A stretch of 41,525 nucleotides of DNA from a virus. Taxonomy: Duplodnaviria > Caudoviricetes. Location of the stretch: the IMG/VR virus record IMGVR_UViG_3300044267_000733, positions 1-41,525 of that record. The stretch is one strand, 5' to 3'. A program made the translations under genes and the position numbers. Shown here piece by piece: positions 3,133 to 36,460 of this stretch (within the stretch, counting starts at the first letter, position 1; each line of letters starts with the position of its first letter). Under the pieces are notes generated by a model. It was given only the letters and a program-made list of their open reading frames with translations. It made no database searches and was not told the DNA's origin.

Positions 3133-4557
3133 GTGTATTCTTCTTTTAACCACTACGACAGGGAACGATCAAGCAAAGCTGTTGAGGTACAAGACCCTAG
3201 CAATGCTTATAAAAATATGGAGCCGAATTGGATATTGATTGAAGATTTGATTAGTGGAACCTATGGCATAAGAAAAAGACATAGAAAATACCTCCCCCAG
3301 ATGCCGCGTGAGCAAGATGAAAGCTACGACAACAGGCTCGCGACTTCAGTTCTTGCGCCTTTATACGTCAGAATCGAAAGATTGCTTGCGGGTATGCTTA
3401 CGCGCAAACCTGTTCGATTAAATGAGGTATCAGAACGAGTTACGGAAGATTTATTTGATGTTGACCTTCAAGGCAACGATCTCACAAGTTGGACATATGA
3501 GACAGCAAAAATAATGCTTCGCTATGGTCATGTTGGGGTTCTTGTGGATGCGCCAACAGAAGGAACTGGTCGACCTTATTGGATTACATATAGCCCGCGT
3601 GAAATCCTCGGATGGCGGACAGAACTTGTAGATGGTAAACAAAAGCTTACACAATTGAGACTTTTAGAACGAGTTACTGAAGATGATGGTGAATATGGGC
3701 AAAAAGAAGTTGAACAGGTGCGATTGCTAACAGCAGGAGGATTTGAGGTTCACAGAAAAACTAGGCAGGGAAAATATGTAAAAGTAGATGAAGGAACGAC
3801 ATCTTTGGACTACATTCCATTTGCTATTGCATATTCAAACAAAGTTTCGTTTTTAGAATCACGTCCGGCGATGCAAGATATTGCAGAATTAAATTTATTG
3901 CATTATCAAAAAAGTTCGGACTTTGATAATCAGCTTAGAATTTCTTCTGTTCCAATGCTTTGTCTTTTTGGATTTCCGCAGGCATCAGAGGAAGTAAGTG
4001 CGGGGCCATCTGAAGCGATGGCATTTCCTGAAGGTGGCAGGGCTGAATTTGTAGAGATCAAAGGCACATCATTCCAATACCAACGCGACAGAATAAAAAA
4101 TATCGAAGATCAAATAAATACTTTGGCACTTGCCGCAATCCTTGGACAAAAACTTGTTGCAGAAACAGCCGCTTCGCAAGAGATTCAAAGAAGCCAAGGC
4201 GATTCGACTTTGATGATTGTGGCGCAACAGTTACAGGATATGATCGACAACTGTTTAGTATTTCATGCAAATTATTTAAATATTGCAGAAATCGGTAACG
4301 CTTTTGTCAATCGTGATTTCTTGGGTCAAAGGTTAGCACCGCAAGAGATTCAGGCGATGCAAGGTTTATGGTCTTCTGGCGCTATATCTCAAGAAACACT
4401 ATTAAAACAATTAGCAGAAGGCGAAATCCTCGGCGATGATTTTGACGTTGAAGAAGAAATCGAATCAACACAAAAAGGAGACATGATCGAAACAGATGAA
4501 CCAACACCTGAAGCTGAAGAAGATGAACCAGTTGAAGACCTAGACGATGACGATTAA
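3133..4557 (+). CDS. Portal protein (DUF4055-like)
   Basis: Follows TerL; YLPQMPRE..YDNRL, DVDLQGN and YGHVGVLVD motifs; acidic tail. Confidence 0.88.
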   Translation: MYSSFNHYDRERSSKAVEVQDPSNAYKNMEPNWILIEDLISGTYGIRKRHRKYLPQMPREQDESYDNRLATSVLAPLYVRIERLLAGMLTRKPVRLNEVSERVTEDLFDVDLQGNDLTSWTYETAKIMLRYGHVGVLVDAPTEGTGRPYWITYSPREILGWRTELVDGKQKLTQLRLLERVTEDDGEYGQKEVEQVRLLTAGGFEVHRKTRQGKYVKVDEGTTSLDYIPFAIAYSNKVSFLESRPAMQDIAELNLLHYQKSSDFDNQLRISSVPMLCLFGFPQASEEVSAGPSEAMAFPEGGRAEFVEIKGTSFQYQRDRIKNIEDQINTLALAAILGQKLVAETAASQEIQRSQGDSTLMIVAQQLQDMIDNCLVFHANYLNIAEIGNAFVNRDFLGQRLAPQEIQAMQGLWSSGAISQETLLKQLAEGEILGDDFDVEEEIESTQKGDMIETDEPTPEAEEDEPVEDLDDDD

Positions 4558-6695
4558 TGACACAAACGCCGATTCGGGTTCCGTCTGATGTCTCCAAACT
4601 TGGGGCATCTATTCCATATCCTGATTTAATTCCCGAAGAATATTTTCGTAATAGTTTAGATTTAAATAGATTTTCAAATAAGATTTCGCGTGAAATCGTT
4701 GAATCTTACAATCGAATCATATTGCGGGCGGTTGATAAATTAGAAGCAATAGAACGTCTTCCAAAGGCCAATCAGCCTAAATATACAGCGGCACGTTTGC
4801 GGGCTTTGTTATTACAGACAAAAGCAAGCCTTAGAAAATGGGATGTGAAGTCAACACGGGATATGGAACTTGTTTCCGATGCTGTTGCAAAGTTGCAAGG
4901 AGAATTTGCAACTGTTCAAATGGAAAAGGCATTGCCCGCAGGCATCAGGTCATCAATCAGAACTGTTGAAGTTACGCCTGCATTTGCAAAAGCTGTTGTA
5001 ACTACTAGCGCATCTGAATTTAATTTAAATGTTTTATCTGATTCATTAAGTACTATCGCGGCGGGTTCTGGCGCAAAGTTTTCTTTGACAGCAAAAGAAG
5101 GTGCATTGATAAGGTTGCCCAATGGTCAATCAATAAAAAAATCTTTTCGTGGAATTACAGATCAAAGTGCAGAAAGACTTGGAAGATCAATTCGCGATGG
5201 ATTACTGGCAGGCGATACAACTGCACAAATGCGTAGACGTTTAATTGGCAAGTTAGGATTCAATACTTTAGCAAAGACAGCAAAACAGCAACAGTTGGCA
5301 ATGCGTGGCGCGTCAATGATGCTTGCAAACCCGCAGATTCAAACAATCGTCAGAACATCAATAAATCAAGTTAGCAATGTCGCGGCGCAACAAGTTTATA
5401 AGGCAAACCCAGATGCAACAAAAAAATATCGTTATCTTGCAACTTTGGACAGTCGAACCAGTTCTCGTTGTAGATCACTAGATCAACAGGTTTTTGAATA
5501 TGGAAAAGGGCCGGAGCCGCCACAGCATTTCAATTGCAGGTCAAGAACAGTTGCCGAAATAGATTATGAGAATTTGAGCCGTGTTTTTGGTCGAAAGATC
5601 GAAGCGCCCAGACGTAGAGGTTTCAGGCCATCAGAAAGCGGCCTAGTACCCGCAGGGCAATCATACGGAACTTGGCTTTCAGGTCAATCACAAACAATAA
5701 AGGCAAAAGCGCTTGGAGCAAAAAAAGTTCGATTTTTTGATAAATTGTCGAAAAAATATGGCGGCGATCAGGCGATCAGAAAATTTGTTGCTGTTGATGG
5801 TTCAGAAAAAACTTTGGCGCAGTTGCAGGCCGCGTATGGTAGAAATGCAGAAAAAATAAAAATTGTTCCTGATGTTGTCAGGGAAAGAAAAGGCGCGGAA
5901 CTTTCTTGGCAAAGATATTCAGATGGTTCGCTTGCAGAAAACGCGGAGCCGTCAAACCTTACAAGATGGACGCCAGAACGTCAGGAATTACATCGACAAA
6001 TTATTGAAGATGTTATTGCGGAGAATAACCCCAAGGCGCAAAAGAATCCGATCTTTTTTATGACAGGCGGCGGGTCGGCTTCTGGTAAATCAATCATGTT
6101 GAAAAAATCGCCTTTACCAAAAGGAACTGTTGTAATTGATGCTGATGAAATTAAAAAGCGCTTGCCTGAATTTAACGCGATGAAAGCCAAGGGCGGGAAG
6201 ATCGCAGAAAATGCCGCGAACTATGTACATGAGGAATCAAGTTGGATTTCAAAATTGATTCAAAGAGAATCAGCGCAAAGAAGGTATCACACAATGTTGG
6301 ATGGAACAGGCGATGGAAGCGTTGCCAGTTTGACCAAAAAAATTAAAACGATGACAGATCGCGGCATGACAGTTCGCGCCAAATACGCAACAGCCGAAAT
6401 TGCAACAGCACTTGAAAGAAACTATCAAAGATATATAAAAACAGGCCGAAGGGTGCTTCCAGAATATGTTCGCAATGTTCACAGAAAAGTATCTGAAATT
6501 GTTCCTGAAGCGATCAAGAACGGCATCTTTGATGACTTTGAACTTTACGATATGAACAAGGCAGGCGAAGCAATACTGGTTGCGACTTTCACAAAGAAAG
6601 ATGGATTAAAGATATTAGACAATAATCTTTATGGAAATTTCTTGGCAAAAGCGTTTCAGCCTGACAGCCTGTTTGAAAAATGGATGGATAAGTAA
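4557..6695 (+). CDS. MuF/SPP1 gp7-like minor head protein fused to a C-terminal zeta-toxin-like P-loop kinase
   Basis: MuF motifs RTSINQ, ATLDSRTSSRCRSLD and PPQHFNCRS; C-terminal GGSASGKS, IDADEIK, LDGTG, ALERN..R and GRRV. Confidence 0.9.
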   Translation: MTQTPIRVPSDVSKLGASIPYPDLIPEEYFRNSLDLNRFSNKISREIVESYNRIILRAVDKLEAIERLPKANQPKYTAARLRALLLQTKASLRKWDVKSTRDMELVSDAVAKLQGEFATVQMEKALPAGIRSSIRTVEVTPAFAKAVVTTSASEFNLNVLSDSLSTIAAGSGAKFSLTAKEGALIRLPNGQSIKKSFRGITDQSAERLGRSIRDGLLAGDTTAQMRRRLIGKLGFNTLAKTAKQQQLAMRGASMMLANPQIQTIVRTSINQVSNVAAQQVYKANPDATKKYRYLATLDSRTSSRCRSLDQQVFEYGKGPEPPQHFNCRSRTVAEIDYENLSRVFGRKIEAPRRRGFRPSESGLVPAGQSYGTWLSGQSQTIKAKALGAKKVRFFDKLSKKYGGDQAIRKFVAVDGSEKTLAQLQAAYGRNAEKIKIVPDVVRERKGAELSWQRYSDGSLAENAEPSNLTRWTPERQELHRQIIEDVIAENNPKAQKNPIFFMTGGGSASGKSIMLKKSPLPKGTVVIDADEIKKRLPEFNAMKAKGGKIAENAANYVHEESSWISKLIQRESAQRRYHTMLDGTGDGSVASLTKKIKTMTDRGMTVRAKYATAEIATALERNYQRYIKTGRRVLPEYVRNVHRKVSEIVPEAIKNGIFDDFELYDMNKAGEAILVATFTKKDGLKILDNNLYGNFLAKAFQPDSLFEKWMDK

Positions 6696-6720: not shown

Positions 6721-6749
6721 TTGACAAATTTATTTAATTCTATTATAAT
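6721..6749 (+). promoter_or_regulatory. Consensus sigma70 promoter, cassette P2
   Basis: TTGACA 6721-6726, 17 nt, TATAAT 6744-6749; leader AAACAAATCAAACCAATG. Confidence 0.92.
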
Positions 6750-6775
6750 TAATTTGTACGAAACAAATCAAACCA

Positions 6776-6916
6776 ATGAACAATCCTTACACTCTCTACG
6801 AACAAGAAGCAATGACCGCTCTTTACAAAGCAATCAACTTTTGTGAAGAAAACGGTCTCCCAACTGGCGATCTTGAAAAGGCTTTAGCTGTTGCAGAAAG
6901 AAGGGAGGTTGCATGA
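6776..6916 (+). CDS. 46-aa hypothetical protein (MNNPYTLYEQEAM...ERREVA), not in the ORF track
   Basis: ATG at the end of the conserved cassette leader; ATGA overlap with the next gene. Confidence 0.8.
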   Translation: MNNPYTLYEQEAMTALYKAINFCEENGLPTGDLEKALAVAERREVA

Positions 6917-7275
6917 TGTTCAGACCTTACACAGTTCCCGCCGATCACAAAGACTTTCAGGTTGGCGATCAGGCGCACATCTGTTTATACACAGACATTG
7001 AGCCTTACACGGTTATCGAAAGAAAAGGTAAGCGTATCAAGTTACAGGAAGCAAAAGCAACTCTTGACCCTACTTGGAAACCAGATATTGCAATTGGCGG
7101 ATTCGTTGGTCATTGCAAAAACAACAGGGAGCAAAGATGGATTATTACAGAAAATCCTGACGGTGGAATCACAGAAGGTTATCTTGGCAACGACAACGAA
7201 TGGTATGAAAAGGGAAGCAACAGGCGACAAATCATCAGCCAAGGATGGGTCAAGTTCCACGATTATAATTTCTAG
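6913..7275 (+). CDS. Hypothetical phage early-type protein
   Basis: SD GGAGG upstream; ATGA coupling; VGD..H...YTD..PYTVI pattern recalled from other phage hypotheticals. Confidence 0.85.
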   Translation: MMFRPYTVPADHKDFQVGDQAHICLYTDIEPYTVIERKGKRIKLQEAKATLDPTWKPDIAIGGFVGHCKNNREQRWIITENPDGGITEGYLGNDNEWYEKGSNRRQIISQGWVKFHDYNF

Positions 7276-7279
7276 GGGG

Positions 7280-7308
7280 TTGACACCCTCTATTAATTAT
7301 ATTATAAT
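7280..7308 (+). promoter_or_regulatory. Consensus sigma70 promoter, cassette P3
   Basis: TTGACA 7280-7285, 17 nt, TATAAT 7303-7308; leader AAACCAATCAAACAAATG. Confidence 0.92.
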
Positions 7309-7334
7309 TAAATTGTTCTAAACCAATCAAACAA

Positions 7335-7775
7335 ATGACAACAGCAACAAAACAAACAGTTGAAACTCTTGCTCAAGAGTATTGCGAAAAAATCACAGAA
7401 GCCAACGAAGCATGGTTGAAAAATTTACGTCTTAATGAAGATGGCACATTTGACCCTTGGCATTTAGATGAAGACGGCAACTACAAAACAGACGATAATC
7501 CACAATACTTTACTTACATGATCGGCAGAAAGTATTTCAAGGTTGTTGCGATGGAATGGGTAGATGATGCTAAGTATGGCAGAATCAACGCCGCCCCCGC
7601 AGGCTATCAGCCAAAACACGTTCATGCTTTTGTTGATAAAACAACAGGCGATGTATTTCTTCCCGCGGGTTGGAACGCCCCTGCTAAAGGTGCAAGGTTC
7701 AATCTTTTTGAAAACAAAGAAGCATTGTTTGAAGGAGTTATGCGCAGGCCACACGGCGGTTATTTATACCGCTAA
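7335..7775 (+). CDS. Conserved phage hypothetical protein (GRKY.K...VHAFVD..TGDV..PA.W.APAK family)
   Basis: Motif recalled from many phage early proteins; has its own promoter and terminator. Confidence 0.88.
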   Translation: MTTATKQTVETLAQEYCEKITEANEAWLKNLRLNEDGTFDPWHLDEDGNYKTDDNPQYFTYMIGRKYFKVVAMEWVDDAKYGRINAAPAGYQPKHVHAFVDKTTGDVFLPAGWNAPAKGARFNLFENKEALFEGVMRRPHGGYLYR

Positions 7776-7781
7776 ACAAAC

Positions 7782-7804
7782 AGCCCCCGAAAGGGGCTTT
7801 TTTT
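7782..7804 (+). terminator. Rho-independent terminator
   Basis: AGCCCC-CGAAA-GGGGCT followed by a T run. Confidence 0.88.
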
Positions 7805-7994
7805 ATGGGAACTCAGGAGTAAAGTCGATGACAGTATTCTTGATTCCTTTTTCTTTTGCAATCTTTCTTGTTCTTTTTACAGAAGCAACAATCTCTTGTC
7901 TAAATTTCTTTTCTTCGCCTGTTTCGTTTTCTTTTACTATTTTCCCACCAACAACTTCATTCATTATTGTTTGCATCTTTTTAGCTGTTAACAA
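7803..7994 (-). CDS. 63-aa protein, antisense within the head module; candidate MuF-toxin immunity protein
   Basis: TTG start with GAGGT SD and an upstream TATACT; converges on the terminator. Function is inference. Confidence 0.65.
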   Translation of the reverse strand: MLTAKKMQTIMNEVVGGKIVKENETGEEKKFRQEIVASVKRTRKIAKEKGIKNTVIDFTPEFP

Positions 7995-8049
7995 TGCTTT
8001 TTACCTCATTCAAGGTTATTCTAGTATATATACAATCTTTTTTAAAGCT

Positions 8050-29013: not shown

Positions 29014-29137
29014 GCTTACTTATTATTTGACGATTTAAGACCCCTAATGTGACATATAGTGGTGTCAAACCTATAATTAGAACTAATACGGCTATGCTCA
29101 TTACAGACATAGCTCTAAGTAACGCAAATTTTATCAT
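29003..29137 (-). CDS. 44-aa single-pass membrane protein (MIKFALL...GLTPLYVTLG..NRQ)
   Basis: Hydrophobic stretch; PLYV motif recalled from picocyanobacterial phage proteins. Confidence 0.6.
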   Translation of the reverse strand: MIKFALLRAMSVMSIAVLVLIIGLTPLYVTLGVLNRQIISKPTK

Positions 29138-29357
29138 GTTCCAGAAAATCGCTAATATTTTAAGCATTGTTTCTTTTCTTATGGTAGCTTCCATGAGTGC
29201 AGGGGCATTTATTACTTACAGATTTGTTACGTCAGAGCAATTTAAAAGTCAAGTTATGAATCAGATACTTACTGAAGTAAGTGGGTCTATGGGCAAAGTT
29301 TTAGATAAACAACTTCCAAAAACTACAGGCGTTTCTATTCCTTTTAATGGAAATTAA
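29136..29357 (+). CDS. 73-aa N-terminally anchored membrane protein (MFQKIANILSIVSF...)
   Basis: TM helix followed by an amphipathic helix, ending LP.TTG..IPF. Confidence 0.75.
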   Translation: MFQKIANILSIVSFLMVASMSAGAFITYRFVTSEQFKSQVMNQILTEVSGSMGKVLDKQLPKTTGVSIPFNGN

Positions 29358-29970
29358 AGAAGTAAAAATTAATGAAATAAATATTCCGAGAATAGAGGTT
29401 TATGAACCTCTGATACCCAAAATAAAAAAAGTACCTAAATTAATTGTTGACTATCCAGCTTGCGTAAAAGTACATAGAAATAATTTAGTAACAGAAATTG
29501 ATATTGATGAAAATGGAACAGTTATAAAATGTGGTGTAGTAATGCCAAGCTATGAACCTTTAAACTATACACCTAATGAGTTTACATATACACAGTCAGA
29601 GTTAAGTAATAGAGCAGAACCAGAACCAATAATACAACCAGATTTAACTAAATTAGTAAAAAAAGAAAAAGAAGAATTATATATTCCTTGCCCACCTTTA
29701 AACCCACCATTTAGAACAGGAGATTACAGAAATGATAAACGGACTGAACGGCTATTAAAATGGGAAAAAGTGGAGAATGATTGTGTCGCAATCTGGGAGA
29801 AAGTTCCATTCCGAGAAACTTTTATTGGTACTCCTCAAATGCTCATTTCTACTACTGTGTTGGGTGTGGTTGCTGGTGGGTCTGCGCTTTTGGCTCCTGT
29901 AATAAAAAAGCTACTTTCCACAATATTTAAACAATTAAAGAAAAAAATAACAAAAGAAGATGTAAAATAA
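29347..29970 (+). CDS. Pro/Cys-containing protein with a C-terminal TM anchor
   Basis: Four Cys, a Pro-rich linker, hydrophobic TVLGVVAGGSALLA then a basic tail. Confidence 0.8.
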   Translation: MEIKEVKINEINIPRIEVYEPLIPKIKKVPKLIVDYPACVKVHRNNLVTEIDIDENGTVIKCGVVMPSYEPLNYTPNEFTYTQSELSNRAEPEPIIQPDLTKLVKKEKEELYIPCPPLNPPFRTGDYRNDKRTERLLKWEKVENDCVAIWEKVPFRETFIGTPQMLISTTVLGVVAGGSALLAPVIKKLLSTIFKQLKKKITKEDVK

Positions 29971-29976
29971 ATAACT

Positions 29977-30012
29977 GTAGATAAGCCTTACCACAGCCCG
30001 TGGCTTGTCTAC
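29977..30012. terminator. 11-bp hairpin between convergent genes
   Basis: GTAGATAAGCC-14 nt-GGCTTGTCTAC. Confidence 0.55.
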
Positions 30013-30797
30013 TTTAATTCGTGAGTATGTGGGATAACTTGACCCATCTTTTCTGTAACTAGAACATCAGCACAAATAGAGTGATAAGGACTTGATGGAT
30101 GATATTGAATACCAGCAATTTTAAGTTCTCCGCAGTTCTTTAATCTTGCTAATTCATAATCTAGTTTTTTATTATTTAATATCTGATTTTGTATTTTTTC
30201 TTGAGTTGTAGCAGATCTTAAGCAAGCATCTTGATATGCAGAACCTAAAGGAATTGAAAAGGTAGCAGCTATCCCAAAATTAATTCCAAGATTATCTCTG
30301 TTGGCTGAATAGTTTTCTTGGTGGTAAAGAATTTCCCCTGCATTTGTCAAATGACCTGAATCATCAGTTGCCATGTTATAAACAGGGGTTGTATATCTTA
30401 AGTCTTGAGGTCGCTTTTGATTAAATGTAGTAGTTACAAAAGGGCTAATTGTAAGCATTGAGTTTTGGCAAACTATACCTCCACCAAATTGAGACTCAAT
30501 GAGATTACCCTGCAATACTTGTACAGCTTGATTGGAAACACTAGATGACGACTGGGCTACGGGCGCTGCGGTTGATGAGGTGTTTGCTAAAATTGGTTTA
30601 TTTATAAGACAAGTAAGACTTGCTATTACTGGGAGAACACTGTAGTAGTTTCTGTAACGCTTTCGCTGGTTATTTGTCTTGTTACGTCTGTAATTCGACT
30701 TACCGAAGGTTGCTTGTAAACTTCCGTAAATTGAAAGGCTGCACCATTTGTTGTAAGTGAAAAGTTTGCTTTGTTGTTTAGATCTACTTGTTTCCAT
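30009..30797 (-). CDS. Secreted/outer-membrane protein with a beta-hairpin and coiled coil (start uncertain)
   Basis: Signal-like segment ending PILA; strands LTISPFVT and GINFGIAATFSIPLG, then a long helix with Cys residues. Confidence 0.75.
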   Translation of the reverse strand: METSRSKQQSKLFTYNKWCSLSIYGSLQATFGKSNYRRNKTNNQRKRYRNYYSVLPVIASLTCLINKPILANTSSTAAPVAQSSSSVSNQAVQVLQGNLIESQFGGGIVCQNSMLTISPFVTTTFNQKRPQDLRYTTPVYNMATDDSGHLTNAGEILYHQENYSANRDNLGINFGIAATFSIPLGSAYQDACLRSATTQEKIQNQILNNKKLDYELARLKNCGELKIAGIQYHPSSPYHSICADVLVTEKMGQVIPHTHELK

Positions 30798-31045
30798 GTA
30801 TAAGTTTCACCGTTTAAAGTCGTTTGTAAGTCAGTGTATTGAGGACTGATAGCCCTATCAGCACTGACACCAGATCCCGTAACGCTGTAAGTTGATCCAG
30901 AAAATTCAACGGTTTTAATTTGCTCGTTAATATTAGTAGTTGTTCTTGTGGTGCTAAAACTTGAGCCTTGACTAAAATTTGGTACAACTGGTATTGCATA
31001 TAGTGGGTTAGATATTAATAAAACAAGTAAACCTAACCATTTCAT
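30626..31045 (-). CDS. Secreted beta-rich protein (PVVPNF.QGS family)
   Basis: Sec signal MKWLGLLVLLISNPLYA; T/S-rich. Confidence 0.85.
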   Translation of the reverse strand: MKWLGLLVLLISNPLYAIPVVPNFSQGSSFSTTRTTTNINEQIKTVEFSGSTYSVTGSGVSADRAISPQYTDLQTTLNGETYTWKQVDLNNKANFSLTTNGAAFQFTEVYKQPSVSRITDVTRQITSESVTETTTVFSQ

Positions 31046-31554
31046 TAATCTAGTATTGATAATTCAGTTACAAATTGGCCTATAGCAGTAGTACCAGCCC
31101 CACCAGCCGTTACTGTTGTTAAGCCAGAACTTGTTACAGTACCAGCCAAGTTTCCAGCAACTCCTCCGCTATAAGTTGTAGTTTTTGATAGCACTGGAAG
31201 GTCAGGTATTACACCTGCAGAAACATCCACTCCAGAACCAACAGCATAAGCCGCATCACCAGAAATCCATGATTCTTGAAAACTGAAGGCTGACCCTGCG
31301 GTGTTTACGTCATAAGTGCCAGCATCTAATGTCGCTGCTGCCGTAGCACTTGCTGGGGCAACTAATTTACCAAAGTGATCGTCAGCAGATGCAACTTTAA
31401 TATTGCTACCAGAAACACTGTATGTACTAGCACCTCGTTCAGCAACGGTATATGCACCATCTACTGTAAGTTGCGTTGAACTTGTCATCTTATGAATCAA
31501 ATCTGCGTGTGCAGAAGGCATAATAAATGCTGCAAGTAGTAAGAGCTTTTTCAT
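31045..31554 (-). CDS. Secreted A/G/S/T-rich beta protein
   Basis: Sec signal MKKLLLLAAFIMPSAHA; ends TAGGAGT.A.GQFV.EL. Confidence 0.85.
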   Translation of the reverse strand: MKKLLLLAAFIMPSAHADLIHKMTSSTQLTVDGAYTVAERGASTYSVSGSNIKVASADDHFGKLVAPASATAAATLDAGTYDVNTAGSAFSFQESWISGDAAYAVGSGVDVSAGVIPDLPVLSKTTTYSGGVAGNLAGTVTSSGLTTVTAGGAGTTAIGQFVTELSILD

Positions 31555-31811
31555 TTGATACCTAAATTGTTTTTACTATTATCTACTATTTTAGGAGCAT
31601 TATTGTTCTTTTTCTTACCAACCTGCAAACCGAAACTGGCTAAACTCCCTGAAAAAATCGAAGCGATGAAAGTTGGATCAAAGTCTACAATCTTCTTCCC
31701 ATCAGGAGGTTCGTAATAAGAAAGACTTAGCATTGCAGCAGACCAAACTAACACCGCAATCTTAACAATCGTTTCAACACGATTACCTTCTTTTTCTTCT
31801 TGTTCTTCCAT
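31551..31811 (-). CDS. Two-TM inner-membrane protein (DPTFIAS family); holin-like topology
   Basis: Acidic N-terminus, two hydrophobic segments, basic C-terminus. Confidence 0.8.
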   Translation of the reverse strand: MEEQEEKEGNRVETIVKIAVLVWSAAMLSLSYYEPPDGKKIVDFDPTFIASIFSGSLASFGLQVGKKKNNNAPKIVDNSKNNLGIK

Positions 31812-31875
31812 AATTAAGGCTTTTTGCTAAAACTAGCAAATTTGTTTAGAGTTGGAAAGAATATATTACAAAAAA

Positions 31876-32037
31876 ATGATTAGATTTATCAAGCCAATAC
31901 TAAAGTTTTTTGTCAAATCAAATGCTGTGAAATCTTTGGTAATTTCGCTGTTAGAGGACTACAGCGCATCCACAGAAACAAATATTGATGACGAAATAGT
32001 TAAGTTAGTTAAAGAAAAGTTGTGGCCTGTTACATAA
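31876..32037 (+). CDS. 53-aa amphipathic protein (N.IDD..V motif)
   Basis: ATG 31876; amphipathic helices. Confidence 0.75.
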   Translation: MIRFIKPILKFFVKSNAVKSLVISLLEDYSASTETNIDDEIVKLVKEKLWPVT

Positions 32038-35479: not shown

Positions 35480-36460
35480 TTAAGGGCAATGAGATGCCAT
35501 TTCTGAATTAACGTGAATTGGTTCAATCCATTTTAAAATTTTCTTTTCTCGTTTTGACCCAACTAAATAAGTATGCCAATGACCCCTTCTCCAATGAGAA
35601 GCCACTGGCGAGCCTTCGCTGTCATCAGATTTTAATCTATTTCTAGACTTACTAATAAATTCTTTTCCAATCCATACATTGTTTCTTGCTTGTTTTTGTT
35701 TACCAAGATCACGAAAGCTATGACCTGAAATTATGGGCAATGGCTTTGATTCAGAAAGCAATTCTGGTTTGTAAGCCATTGTAAGTAATGAATGAACAAC
35801 TATCTGCTGCATTTTCATGCAAGCAGCTTGAGTTTTTGTCTCATAGCCCTGCACACAATATGGGTCTAAGTGCGGCTTTGAGTGGTGCAGATCCTTCCAA
35901 GATGATGTATTAATAATTGAACTGCCGTAATTACTAAACCCAAAAATATAAATACCATCAAATCCATCCATTACAAGCTCTATGCCTTGTCTAGCACAGG
36001 CTCGTTTAAAACACATTCCTGTCATGACTAGCAATCCGTCAAGAGACTGATCCCAATCATCAAACAACAAATCTTTTGGCAAGTTGATAATGAAATGTTC
36101 TAAAGCTATAGGAGGTTTAATAATTCCTTTAGTGGAAGTTTTTAAAAAAGCTTCGCCAAGATTTCTTGAAATATGTCTTACAGGAGAATCGAAATGGAGC
36201 GCGTAACTTGATGCGACACAAGTTTCTTTATCGCATTGATGACCGAAACGCATTGCTTGTGGCAAAGCCATTTCGTAATACATTAAGTGACCAAGTAGTT
36301 CTCTCCAAGGGGTAAATCCTGAAGGTGCAGAATATAGTTTTTGTTTTTCTTTGAATAGTTTGTTTTTAGAAATCAAACTAAGTCCTTGTCTAAAAATGAC
36401 TCTACCTTTTGTAATTTGTTCTGGCGATAAAAGTCGGGCTGGAATTGATTCTATTTTCAT
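35480..36460 (-). CDS. HxRRGHW-motif protein (AcrVA2/FinQ-like C-terminus)
   Basis: SHWRRGHWH...KWIEPIHVN; 326 aa. Confidence 0.65.
   Translation of the reverse strand: MKIESIPARLLSPEQITKGRVIFRQGLSLISKNKLFKEKQKLYSAPSGFTPWRELLGHLMYYEMALPQAMRFGHQCDKETCVASSYALHFDSPVRHISRNLGEAFLKTSTKGIIKPPIALEHFIINLPKDLLFDDWDQSLDGLLVMTGMCFKRACARQGIELVMDGFDGIYIFGFSNYGSSIINTSSWKDLHHSKPHLDPYCVQGYETKTQAACMKMQQIVVHSLLTMAYKPELLSESKPLPIISGHSFRDLGKQKQARNNVWIGKEFISKSRNRLKSDDSEGSPVASHWRRGHWHTYLVGSKREKKILKWIEPIHVNSEMASHCP

Follow-up and report, generated by a model that had tools for sequence, protein, structure and literature searches.

The 41,525-nucleotide viral DNA analyzed here (the window), which derives from a marine, cyanophage-like virus, carries a minor head protein of the MuF type that ends in a kinase domain, raising the question of what this kinase phosphorylates and what it does for the virus. 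The gene (4557..6695, + strand) is a single uninterrupted reading frame of 712 aa in the head-packaging module, with the portal gene on one side and the scaffold gene on the other. Its N-terminal part contains the MuF core (Pfam Phage_Mu_F, aa 232-331, 5250..5549, + strand; E 1.5e-10, 42.2 bits vs a cut-off of 29.6), with the motifs RTSINQV at 5352, ATLDSRTS at 5439 and HFNCRS at 5526. The carrier region extends to ~aa 430, where kinase-less relatives end. The C-terminal kinase, of the zeta/AvrRxo1 type, runs from a W-TPER-LH motif to the C-terminus (5964..6692, + strand; model pLDDT 94.5) and matches Pfam Zeta_toxin (PF06414) over aa 487-667 (E 4.6e-18, 65.8 bits vs a cut-off of 22.3). Its P-loop kinase motifs are GGGSASGKS (6066), DADEIK (6138), DGTG (6300), ALERNYQR (6408) and GRRV (6444). 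The fusion of MuF to a zeta-family kinase is therefore genuine, as the initial annotation had read it from both sets of motifs, and both profile matches exceed the Pfam cut-offs. A wider Atlas search with the kinase returned the Pfam label and nothing further. In 9 of 10 sequence pairs dN/dS was 0.015-0.145 (the remaining pair was saturated), indicating purifying selection on the fusion and its kinase. By its sequence the kinase is intact and selected, and it is very likely active. The architecture itself is not new, since MuF fusions to zeta-toxin-like domains, delivered at invasion, are described in passages of Iyer et al. 2017 (PMC5512222).

Delivery of the kinase together with the DNA had already been proposed for this gene, and this gains weight from the cultured Prochlorococcus phage P-SS2. 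ORF030 of P-SS2 combines MuF with the same kinase type (47% identity to the window kinase), and ORF033, 0.4 kb downstream, is a homologue of a 63-aa protein encoded near the window kinase (see below). Both were found in purified virions, ORF030 with 96.5 peptides and ORF033 with 2.5 peptides (Sullivan et al. 2009, PMC2784084). Note that the peptide figures refer to ORF030 as a whole and not to its MuF, kinase or other parts. In contrast to the window gene product, ORF030 is a 1499-aa protein with further cargo, called 'major capsid protein' in PMC2784084, and P-SS2, with a genome of 107 kb, encodes both an integrase and an endolysin. By analogy with this homologue, the window fusion is very likely packaged in the virion.

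We next compared the active site with that of zeta from pSM19035, the reference for residue numbering. The annotated correspondences hold: K511 in the Walker A loop (6066..6092, + strand) aligns with K46, the catalytic Asp530 (6144..6146, + strand) with D67, T584 with T118, R625 with R158 and R631 with R171; in addition, K533 aligns with K70. Asp530 also corresponds to D193 of AvrRxo1 as given in a passage of PMC4938570. Among 143 non-redundant domains, K511 and D530 are each conserved in 141, and R625 and R631 in all. The acceptor loop differs from that of zeta. Where zeta has GTxR, the window kinase has DGTGD (6300..6314, + strand), retaining the Thr and replacing Arg120 with Asp586, a change that had gone unremarked. 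The Thr118 equivalent is present in 132 of the 143 relatives, whereas GTxR and an Arg at the R120 site occur in none (mostly Asp or Asn instead), and a Glu at the E100 site in 3. Thus, one of the five residues by which zeta binds UDP-GlcNAc is retained and E100, R120, T121 and T128 are lost. A HEESS motif (6228..6242, + strand) is common to AvrRxo1 but not found in zeta or PezT; HxES is present in 135 of the 143. Kinase homologues (gp115 in HVTV-1) are also encoded directly behind the MuF genes of the haloarchaeal viruses HVTV-1 and HCTV-1, whose hosts lack peptidoglycan. UDP-GlcNAc, the substrate first suggested, is unlikely given the binding residues, the absence of GTxR and the haloviral homologues; the motif loss suggests that the acceptor is most probably not UDP-GlcNAc bound in the manner of zeta.

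Structural comparison gave three nearly tied fold matches, within ~1 Z unit: AvrRxo1 (Z 20.1, rmsd 3.7, 252 aligned), zeta (Z 19.4, 4.3, 230) and PezT (Z 19.0, 4.3, 221). The match after these was at Z 12.8, with polynucleotide kinases at Z 12.8 and lower. Foldseek placed PezT and zeta on top, zeta was the top match in a PDB sequence search, and profile scores were 63.6 bits for zeta vs 45.8 bits for AvrRxo1. The XopAJ model matched at 28.2 bits over aa 20-245 vs 23 bits over 44-172 for PezT; zeta itself did not match the XopAJ model at E 1. Note that 28.2 bits is below the 300-bit cut-off of the XopAJ/AvrRxo1 family (NF041405). The W-PER-LH and HxESS motifs of the kinase are common to AvrRxo1 only, as markers derived from our own alignment rather than from the literature. 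In an unrooted tree (57 rows minus 30 with long branches or redundant phage sequences, plus the window and P-SS2), five zeta-type plasmid toxins stood apart from the other 24 rows with support of 100/96. The 24-row side holds the window kinase, two halovirus rows and two AvrRxo1-like rows, the latter being sequence homologues only, on a long branch at an unresolved fork. The zeta group was likewise apart (97, quick method) in an earlier tree that omitted the window row.

AvrRxo1 and NAD, mentioned in passing in the initial annotation, are the better lead than UDP-GlcNAc. AvrRxo1-Arc1 (XopAJ) is an NAD 3'-kinase system of Xanthomonas oryzae pv. oryzicola. The window kinase resembles AvrRxo1 in the top fold score (by a small margin), the W-PER-LH and HxESS motifs, the catalytic residues and a small downstream gene, here a candidate antitoxin. 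It differs in overall sequence (18% identity), in the acceptor loop (G-T-G-D vs K-R-L-S, the GTG of zeta being retained where AvrRxo1 has K-R-L) and in delivery, which goes through a phage head instead of a type III secretion system. With zeta and PezT, the UDP-GlcNAc 3'-kinase toxins of epsilon/PezA systems, it shares the Pfam family, the fold, the Walker A Lys, the catalytic Asp and two Arg, but GTxR and E100 are absent and the tree separates the zeta-type toxins. The likeness to AvrRxo1 is one of motifs and fold rather than of mapped NAD-binding residues, and we rate as about even the chance that NAD or a closely related adenine nucleotide serves as acceptor.

An injected kinase controlled by the same inhibitor might instead phosphorylate a defence signal, a product of NAD breakdown or the 3' end of an RNA, serving counter-defence rather than a metabolic stall. 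The co-domains of 90 scanned homologues (ART in 5, NUDIX in 2, 2H in 1 and GNAT in 1), a 1134-aa structural match labelled anti-CBASS Acb1 and the polynucleotide kinases as next folds are consistent with such a role, and for 2H domains fused to MuF or portal proteins, a passage of PMC9503650 suggests a role against nucleotide signalling. However, co-domains of polyvalent proteins need not have a common target, and according to a passage of PMC5087710 a UpA dinucleotide was no substrate for AvrRxo1. Moreover, because the inhibitor is conserved, the target presumably matters to the producing cell as well. We consider such an acceptor unlikely.

Phosphorylation of a UDP-sugar wall precursor, weakening the wall to ease injection or to slow the host, is the role assigned by passages of Iyer et al. 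2017 (PMC5512222), which ascribe the zeta reaction to such fusions; the main-text passages name no inhibitor for them. The Zeta_toxin match, zeta as top PDB sequence match and the widely conserved Thr fit this role, and gonococcal zeta1 phosphorylates UDP-sugars via a different residue set, as reported in part of PMC5923241. Nevertheless, the loss of most binding residues and the homologues behind MuF in HVTV-1 and HCTV-1 speak against it, and an enzyme that enters with the DNA presumably could not help that same entry. Wall weakening is thus improbable.

The NAD-type reading involves a second gene, new here and missed by the initial annotation: a 63-codon ORF (7803..7994, - strand) with a TTG start, a GAGG-type ribosome site and no Pfam family, which is a candidate cognate inhibitor. 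Among related loci that were fully spanned, all 18 with the kinase contained it and 0 of 18 without the kinase did, each set consisting of close kin rather than independent draws. Homologues were found in 6 of 6 P-SS2-like loci and in 12 of 20 more distant ones; at E < 0.001 there was none in the other 8 distant phage loci, three of which break off at the gene or shortly past it, nor in another 16 loci, among them those of haloviruses and of Bacillus solo genes. A tblastn search of cultured phages with the partner returned nothing, whereas its profile found P-SS2 ORF033 at 1e-28. Viewed beside the three-helix antitoxins of the epsilon/PezA type, the partner model consists of two helices and a tail. 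Glu and Pro at the partner's C-terminus are invariant. No Atlas cluster bearing a name matched it (best 0.86), and its fold matches did not exceed Z 4.8, a value reached with unrelated chains; such weak matches do not demonstrate a new fold.

In the window, kinase and partner are parted by a variable insert of small genes (6721..7775, + strand) with perfect sigma-70 consensus promoters at 6721-6749 and 7280-7308; in other relatives the two genes abut. ORFs 6776-6916, 6913-7275 and 7335-7775 were rejected as immunity genes because they vary freely among relatives. The insert genes and the small ORF converge on a hairpin with T runs (7782..7798) that lies between them and is terminator-like on both strands. 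A promoter-like site with 9/12 consensus (8018..8046, - strand) lies upstream of the small ORF, such matches being at chance level in the region (16 observed vs 13.1 expected). Another, at 7991-7963, was discarded as its promoter since it sits within the ORF.

Structure prediction gave a kinase-partner complex with a score of 0.86 (best control 0.01); in calibration, 116 of 157 solved pairs and 2 of 215 mismatched pairs attained the score mark. At least 96% of contacts agreed between runs, and partner pLDDT was at least 84. The predicted contacts comprise D530, K533, H558, S561, S562, K566, 581-588, K595 and 630-637. Thus, the partner is predicted to sit mainly in the acceptor cleft, including the catalytic Asp, with the HEESS motif inside the interface. 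In contrast, epsilon covers the ATP site of zeta and leaves the sugar site free, and Arc1 is reported, in the passages available on it, to occlude the ATP site of AvrRxo1. From the observed co-occurrence and the predicted binding, we infer that the small protein quite probably binds and inhibits the kinase in the producing cell.

The arrangement resembles the MuF polymorphic toxins of Jamet et al. 2017 (PMC5576092): a MuF1 carrier at the N-terminus, a swappable C-terminal cargo and a linked small ORF as likely immunity gene, here suggested as cognate by co-occurrence and the predicted complex. It differs from those systems in that the small ORF is encoded on the opposite strand at a distance of 1.1 kb. 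P-SS2 gp030 is listed there for its ART domain only, and 'zeta' occurs in neither the main text nor the 6 supplements searched. MuF or portal domains accompany 42 of 90 scanned kinase homologues (34 and 8, respectively), and >3,000 clusters at 50% identity give a strong profile match to the kinase. The same MuF occurs elsewhere with ART-like, peptidase or no cargo; relatives at 44-48% carry a different cargo or none, MED4-184 has a peptidase, and one related locus shows a cassette swap that left a kinase relic. Other MuF cargoes are accompanied by small ORFs of their own. The kinase works as one interchangeable cargo in a MuF polymorphic toxin slot. As for encoding by a temperate phage, a trait of MuF polymorphic toxins, no integrase was found among the 66 window ORFs, while G309, a relative, is classified as a provirus and P-SS2 encodes an integrase.

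Alternatively, the kinase could be non-toxic and the small protein a chaperone or packaging adaptor during head assembly. The presence of both P-SS2 proteins in virions would fit, as would a Cystobacter AvrRxo1 homologue that did not suppress E. coli growth (in a passage of PMC4938570). However, the predicted interface spans the catalytic Asp and acceptor cleft, and small ORFs beside other MuF cargoes follow the immunity-gene pattern of Jamet et al., making this quite improbable.

The initial annotation was right that an endolysin is missing: none of classical type was found among the 66 ORFs of the window, a record rated 100% complete. Neither GH19 nor GH73 matched in kinase-bearing genomes (three of complete close relatives, one a provirus), nor in the kinase-less G310, the GH19 negatives being weak because that search matched in no control genome. 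The suggestion that late-made kinase halts wall synthesis in place of an endolysin nevertheless fails and is very improbable, because P-SS2 has the fusion together with an endolysin (ORF098, glucosaminidase domain E 1.1e-19) and MED4-184 shows neither kinase nor endolysin (54 of 59 annotated proteins scanned); a cognate inhibitor would also work against late killing.

In conclusion, the mostly lost binding residues and the nearby gene for a predicted plug make a self-inhibited injected enzyme with an NAD-type acceptor, rather than a lysis aid, likely. The MuF-kinase protein would be packaged in the head and injected along with the DNA. In the producing cell the 63-aa product of 7803..7994 would plug the kinase, and the pair would separate during passage into a new cell. 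There the kinase may transfer phosphate to the 3'-OH on the ribose of an adenine nucleotide; NAD, the substrate of AvrRxo1, is the likeliest candidate. In a brief burst, the enzyme would hold up redox metabolism of the host, or defence that relies on nucleotides, until fresh inhibitor is made. The separation and the effect of the burst are inferred; a toxin co-packaged with its inhibitor would need a release step, which counts against it. As a whole, the reading of a toxin and antitoxin delivered in the virion, with an adenine nucleotide (probably NAD) as target, has in our estimate an equal chance of being right or wrong.

This reading corrects the view of wall weakening, the sole published proposal that we found for MuF-zeta fusions, and may answer a point left open in PMC4284463, namely what 'zeta toxins' do in viruses of haloarchaea. 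The toxin-antitoxin pair is open to direct cloning and assay, and P-SS2 offers a cultured phage with both proteins in its virion data. More tentatively, and with the greater weight of doubt, NAD 3'-kinases injected from the virion may form a large family, so far overlooked, in tailed viruses of bacteria and archaea, each with a ~60-residue acceptor-site inhibitor in the head; AvrRxo1 would be an offshoot of this family; 3'-NADP would then be common in early ocean phage infection. If the product is 3'-NADP, a metabolite known from a plant-pathogen effector would belong to the ordinary course of phage infection in the ocean's most abundant phototrophs.

The open reading frame at 4557-6695 (plus strand) encodes a 712-residue protein in which Pfam profiles recognised Phage_Mu_F at residues 232-331 and Zeta_toxin at residues 487-667, both above the cut-off. 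The MuF and P-loop kinase motifs named in the initial annotation are all present where it placed them, and its assignment of both domains was borne out by this search. The C-terminal 263 residues, modelled with AlphaFold2 (pLDDT 94.5), matched AvrRxo1 (Z 20.1, rmsd 3.7, 252 residues aligned), zeta (Z 19.4, rmsd 4.3, 230 aligned) and PezT (Z 19.0, rmsd 4.3, 221 aligned) in a near-tie, with the next fold down at 12.8; the Foldseek order put PezT and zeta first. The kinase is under purifying selection, with dN/dS of 0.015-0.145 in nine of ten pairs and saturation in the remaining pair. In two near-identical relatives (L005 and L055) the fusion gene is split over two frames, by assembly error or a real break.

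The MuF-zeta architecture is already known: the accessible text of Iyer et al. 2017 (PMC5512222) describes zeta-toxin-like kinases joined to MuF domains in phages and suggests wall weakening. At E up to 1e-30, the kinase profile matched 3,347 clusters among 1.84 billion representatives. A co-domain scan of 90 of the best 150 homologues, picked for greater length, found MuF in 34, a portal domain (four Pfam families) in 8, and ART, NUDIX, GNAT and 2H co-domains in a few. Tandem kinase domains, two or three on one MuF, occur in many of the top-scoring homologues (P0104-P0121, L058, L059), and a solo member on a Bacillus cereus plasmid (L119:3117-8693) lies amid nucleotide pyrophosphohydrolase, HNH and DUF2075 genes, a setting resembling a defence island. 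In cultured cyanophage P-SS2, a 47% identical kinase is located behind MuF in ORF030 (L001:7804-12303), a multi-cargo protein which the 2009 paper named 'major capsid protein'. Purified P-SS2 virions contained ORF030 at a mean of 96.5 peptides, according to the available portion of PMC2784084; packaging of the MuF carrier, as initially proposed, thus holds for this homologue.

The 41,525-base record is rated 100% complete, has 37% G+C and carries a siphovirus-type head and tail gene set. The portal shares 57-63% identity with its counterparts in the cultured cyanophages KBS-S-2A, S-H1, MED4-184 and MED4-117, from which we infer a picocyanobacterial host. Neither an integrase nor a classical endolysin was found among the 66 ORFs scanned. 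Immediately before the terminase genes, 187-1437 joins a ParB-like domain to a DNA methyltransferase, and a 326-residue ORF at 35480-36460 matched no Pfam family and a single PHROG, weakly and C-terminally.

UDP-GlcNAc is contacted in zeta by E100, T118, R120, T121 and T128 (PMC3062530, PMC4938570), with GTxR as the binding motif (PMC6362051), as stated in the accessible parts of these papers. By alignment, the window carries K566, T584, D586 and G587 at the first four sites and a Lys (594 or 595, by the alignment used) at the T128 site. Among 143 domains of <60% mutual identity, all from the top matches and hence biased to the near subfamily, neither GTxR nor Arg at the R120 site occurred (0/143 each), HxES was present in 135, and the catalytic residues were almost invariant. 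HxES and an N-terminal W-PER-LH motif are common to the kinase and AvrRxo1 and absent from zeta and PezT; with the near-tied fold match, they fit the kinship with AvrRxo1 noted earlier. An unrooted 29-row tree separated five zeta-type plasmid toxins from all other rows at 100/96; the non-zeta side includes the window, P-SS2, two halovirus proteins and two AvrRxo1-like proteins, the latter without a resolved position there. The haloarchaeal viruses HVTV-1 and HCTV-1 carry the kinase domain, in an HDEAS form, immediately behind the MuF gene. Their hosts lack peptidoglycan. This and the missing GTxR speak against UDP-GlcNAc phosphorylation as in zeta and PezT, the activity first proposed, and judging from sequence the acceptor is probably not UDP-GlcNAc. 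A review, in its accessible text, gives the role of the halovirus genes as unknown (PMC4284463). However, the profile ranks zeta over AvrRxo1, zeta's G-T-G is retained in the acceptor loop, and gonococcal zeta1 is reported to bind UDP-sugars via other residues (available sections of PMC5923241). Because of these three points NAD, whose adenosine 3'-OH is the reported target of AvrRxo1 (PMC5087710, PMC5491322, both in part), is our best guess for the acceptor with about an even chance of being right.

We reject the further proposal that the kinase blocks wall synthesis in place of a missing endolysin: P-SS2 has, besides the fusion, a glucosaminidase domain in ORF098, and MED4-184, cultured on Prochlorococcus and bearing a peptidase on MuF in place of the kinase, shows no endolysin among 54 of its 59 annotated proteins. 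The P-SS2 and KBS-S-2A endolysins matched neither MED4-184 nor window DNA, and among five relatives, four of them near-complete and kinase-bearing and one kinase-less, GH19 (searched without a positive control) and GH73 gave no match. Absence of a recognisable endolysin is thus seen both with the kinase and without it. Separately, a cassette of unknown genes 3' of the tail fibres (29049-32037; PHROG 568, 570, 848, 564 and DUF6450) is a candidate unconventional lysis module. It is shared with MED4-184, the KBS-S-2A endolysin occupies the corresponding place, DUF6450 occurs in four of five relatives searched, and several of its ORFs appear by eye membrane-bound or secreted.

Among the small ORFs downstream of the fusion gene, one 56-80-residue family recurs, represented in the window by a 63-codon ORF with a TTG start (7803-7994, minus strand), hereafter the partner. 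It was present in 18/18 kinase-bearing loci spanning MuF to scaffold (window included; three duplicates and the window's own locus copy set aside) and in 0/18 kinase-less loci, both sets being close kin within themselves; nor was it found in MED4-184 or KBS-S-2A. The separate P-SS2-like lineage had it in all six loci with downstream DNA, two of them near-copies. In reverse, 41 loci found from the partner showed the kinase in 32; of the other nine, four lie on contigs matched by the kinase elsewhere, four end too soon and one, L152, is an exception. There, a cargo resembling ART is accompanied by a small ORF of its own; behind them come 24 codons left over from the 3' end of the kinase gene and an orphan partner, a layout that would be the expected trace of a cassette swap. 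The swap at L152:120-2591 appears recent, and the MuF itself, with its ART-like domain, differs. In 20 loci with kinases 39-48% identical, an initial search found a partner homologue (E < 0.001) in 11, and iteration raised this to 12; in three of the loci without one, the DNA stops at or just past the kinase gene. No homologue reached this threshold in another 16 loci, haloviruses and solo genes from Bacillus among them, and the best E among 7,791 control segments was 12. Four close pairs of the partner have dN/dS of 0.01-0.05 and four distant pairs 0.17-0.36, which indicates purifying selection. Between the fusion gene and the partner, a hypervariable small-gene insert in the head module (6721-7775), behind two perfect sigma-70 consensus promoters, differs in gene content even among near-identical relatives. 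Other MuF cargoes also appear paired with small-ORF families of their own, each of few members: one by ART-like domains and one by zinc peptidases (L085, L086, L088, L089, L059, L060, L063; L093, L063, L130:23323-23514), the latter also in MED4-184.

Co-folding of kinase and partner scored 0.86 (best control 0.01). Of 157 solved complexes 116 attained this mark, as did 2 of 215 mismatched pairs; both figures are approximate for the present alignments. The runs had at least 96% of contacts in common with partner pLDDT at least 84, and the model supports binding as a prediction. Contacts included the catalytic Asp530, Lys533, His558, Ser561, Ser562, Lys566, 581-588, Lys595 and 630-637. Because the P-loop contributes only Gly504, Gly506 and Ser507, the predicted position of the partner is mainly the acceptor cleft, whereas epsilon and Arc1 reportedly occlude the ATP site (PMC3062530 and PMC4938570, accessible text).

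Sequence analysis establishes an intact kinase on a MuF carrier, a swappable cargo slot and a conserved, linked small ORF. The small partner is predicted to plug the kinase cleft and may thereby protect the producing cell. Both P-SS2 homologues are reported in the virion, the partner homologue ORF033 at a mean of 2.5 peptides (PMC2784084, in part); its neighbours ORF031 and ORF032 were likewise detected. The pair would separate during injection, and early in infection the freed kinase might transfer phosphate to NAD or a similar adenine nucleotide. No paper that we found connects this kinase with NAD or puts a name to its inhibitor; the partner might already be listed in subscription papers, in figures or on the data site of Iyer et al. 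2017. Neither 'zeta' nor 'AvrRxo1' occurs in PMC9503650 or in the accessible text of PMC3482391, PMC10532202 lacks 'MuF', and bioRxiv 2025.01.14.632903 contains the terms separately. MuF toxins with immunity ORFs are described in the available part of PMC5576092, which lists P-SS2 gp030 for ART alone. Relative to this literature, in which the fusion and MuF immunity ORFs were already known, what would be new is a putative NAD link for a MuF-fused kinase and a candidate inhibitor.
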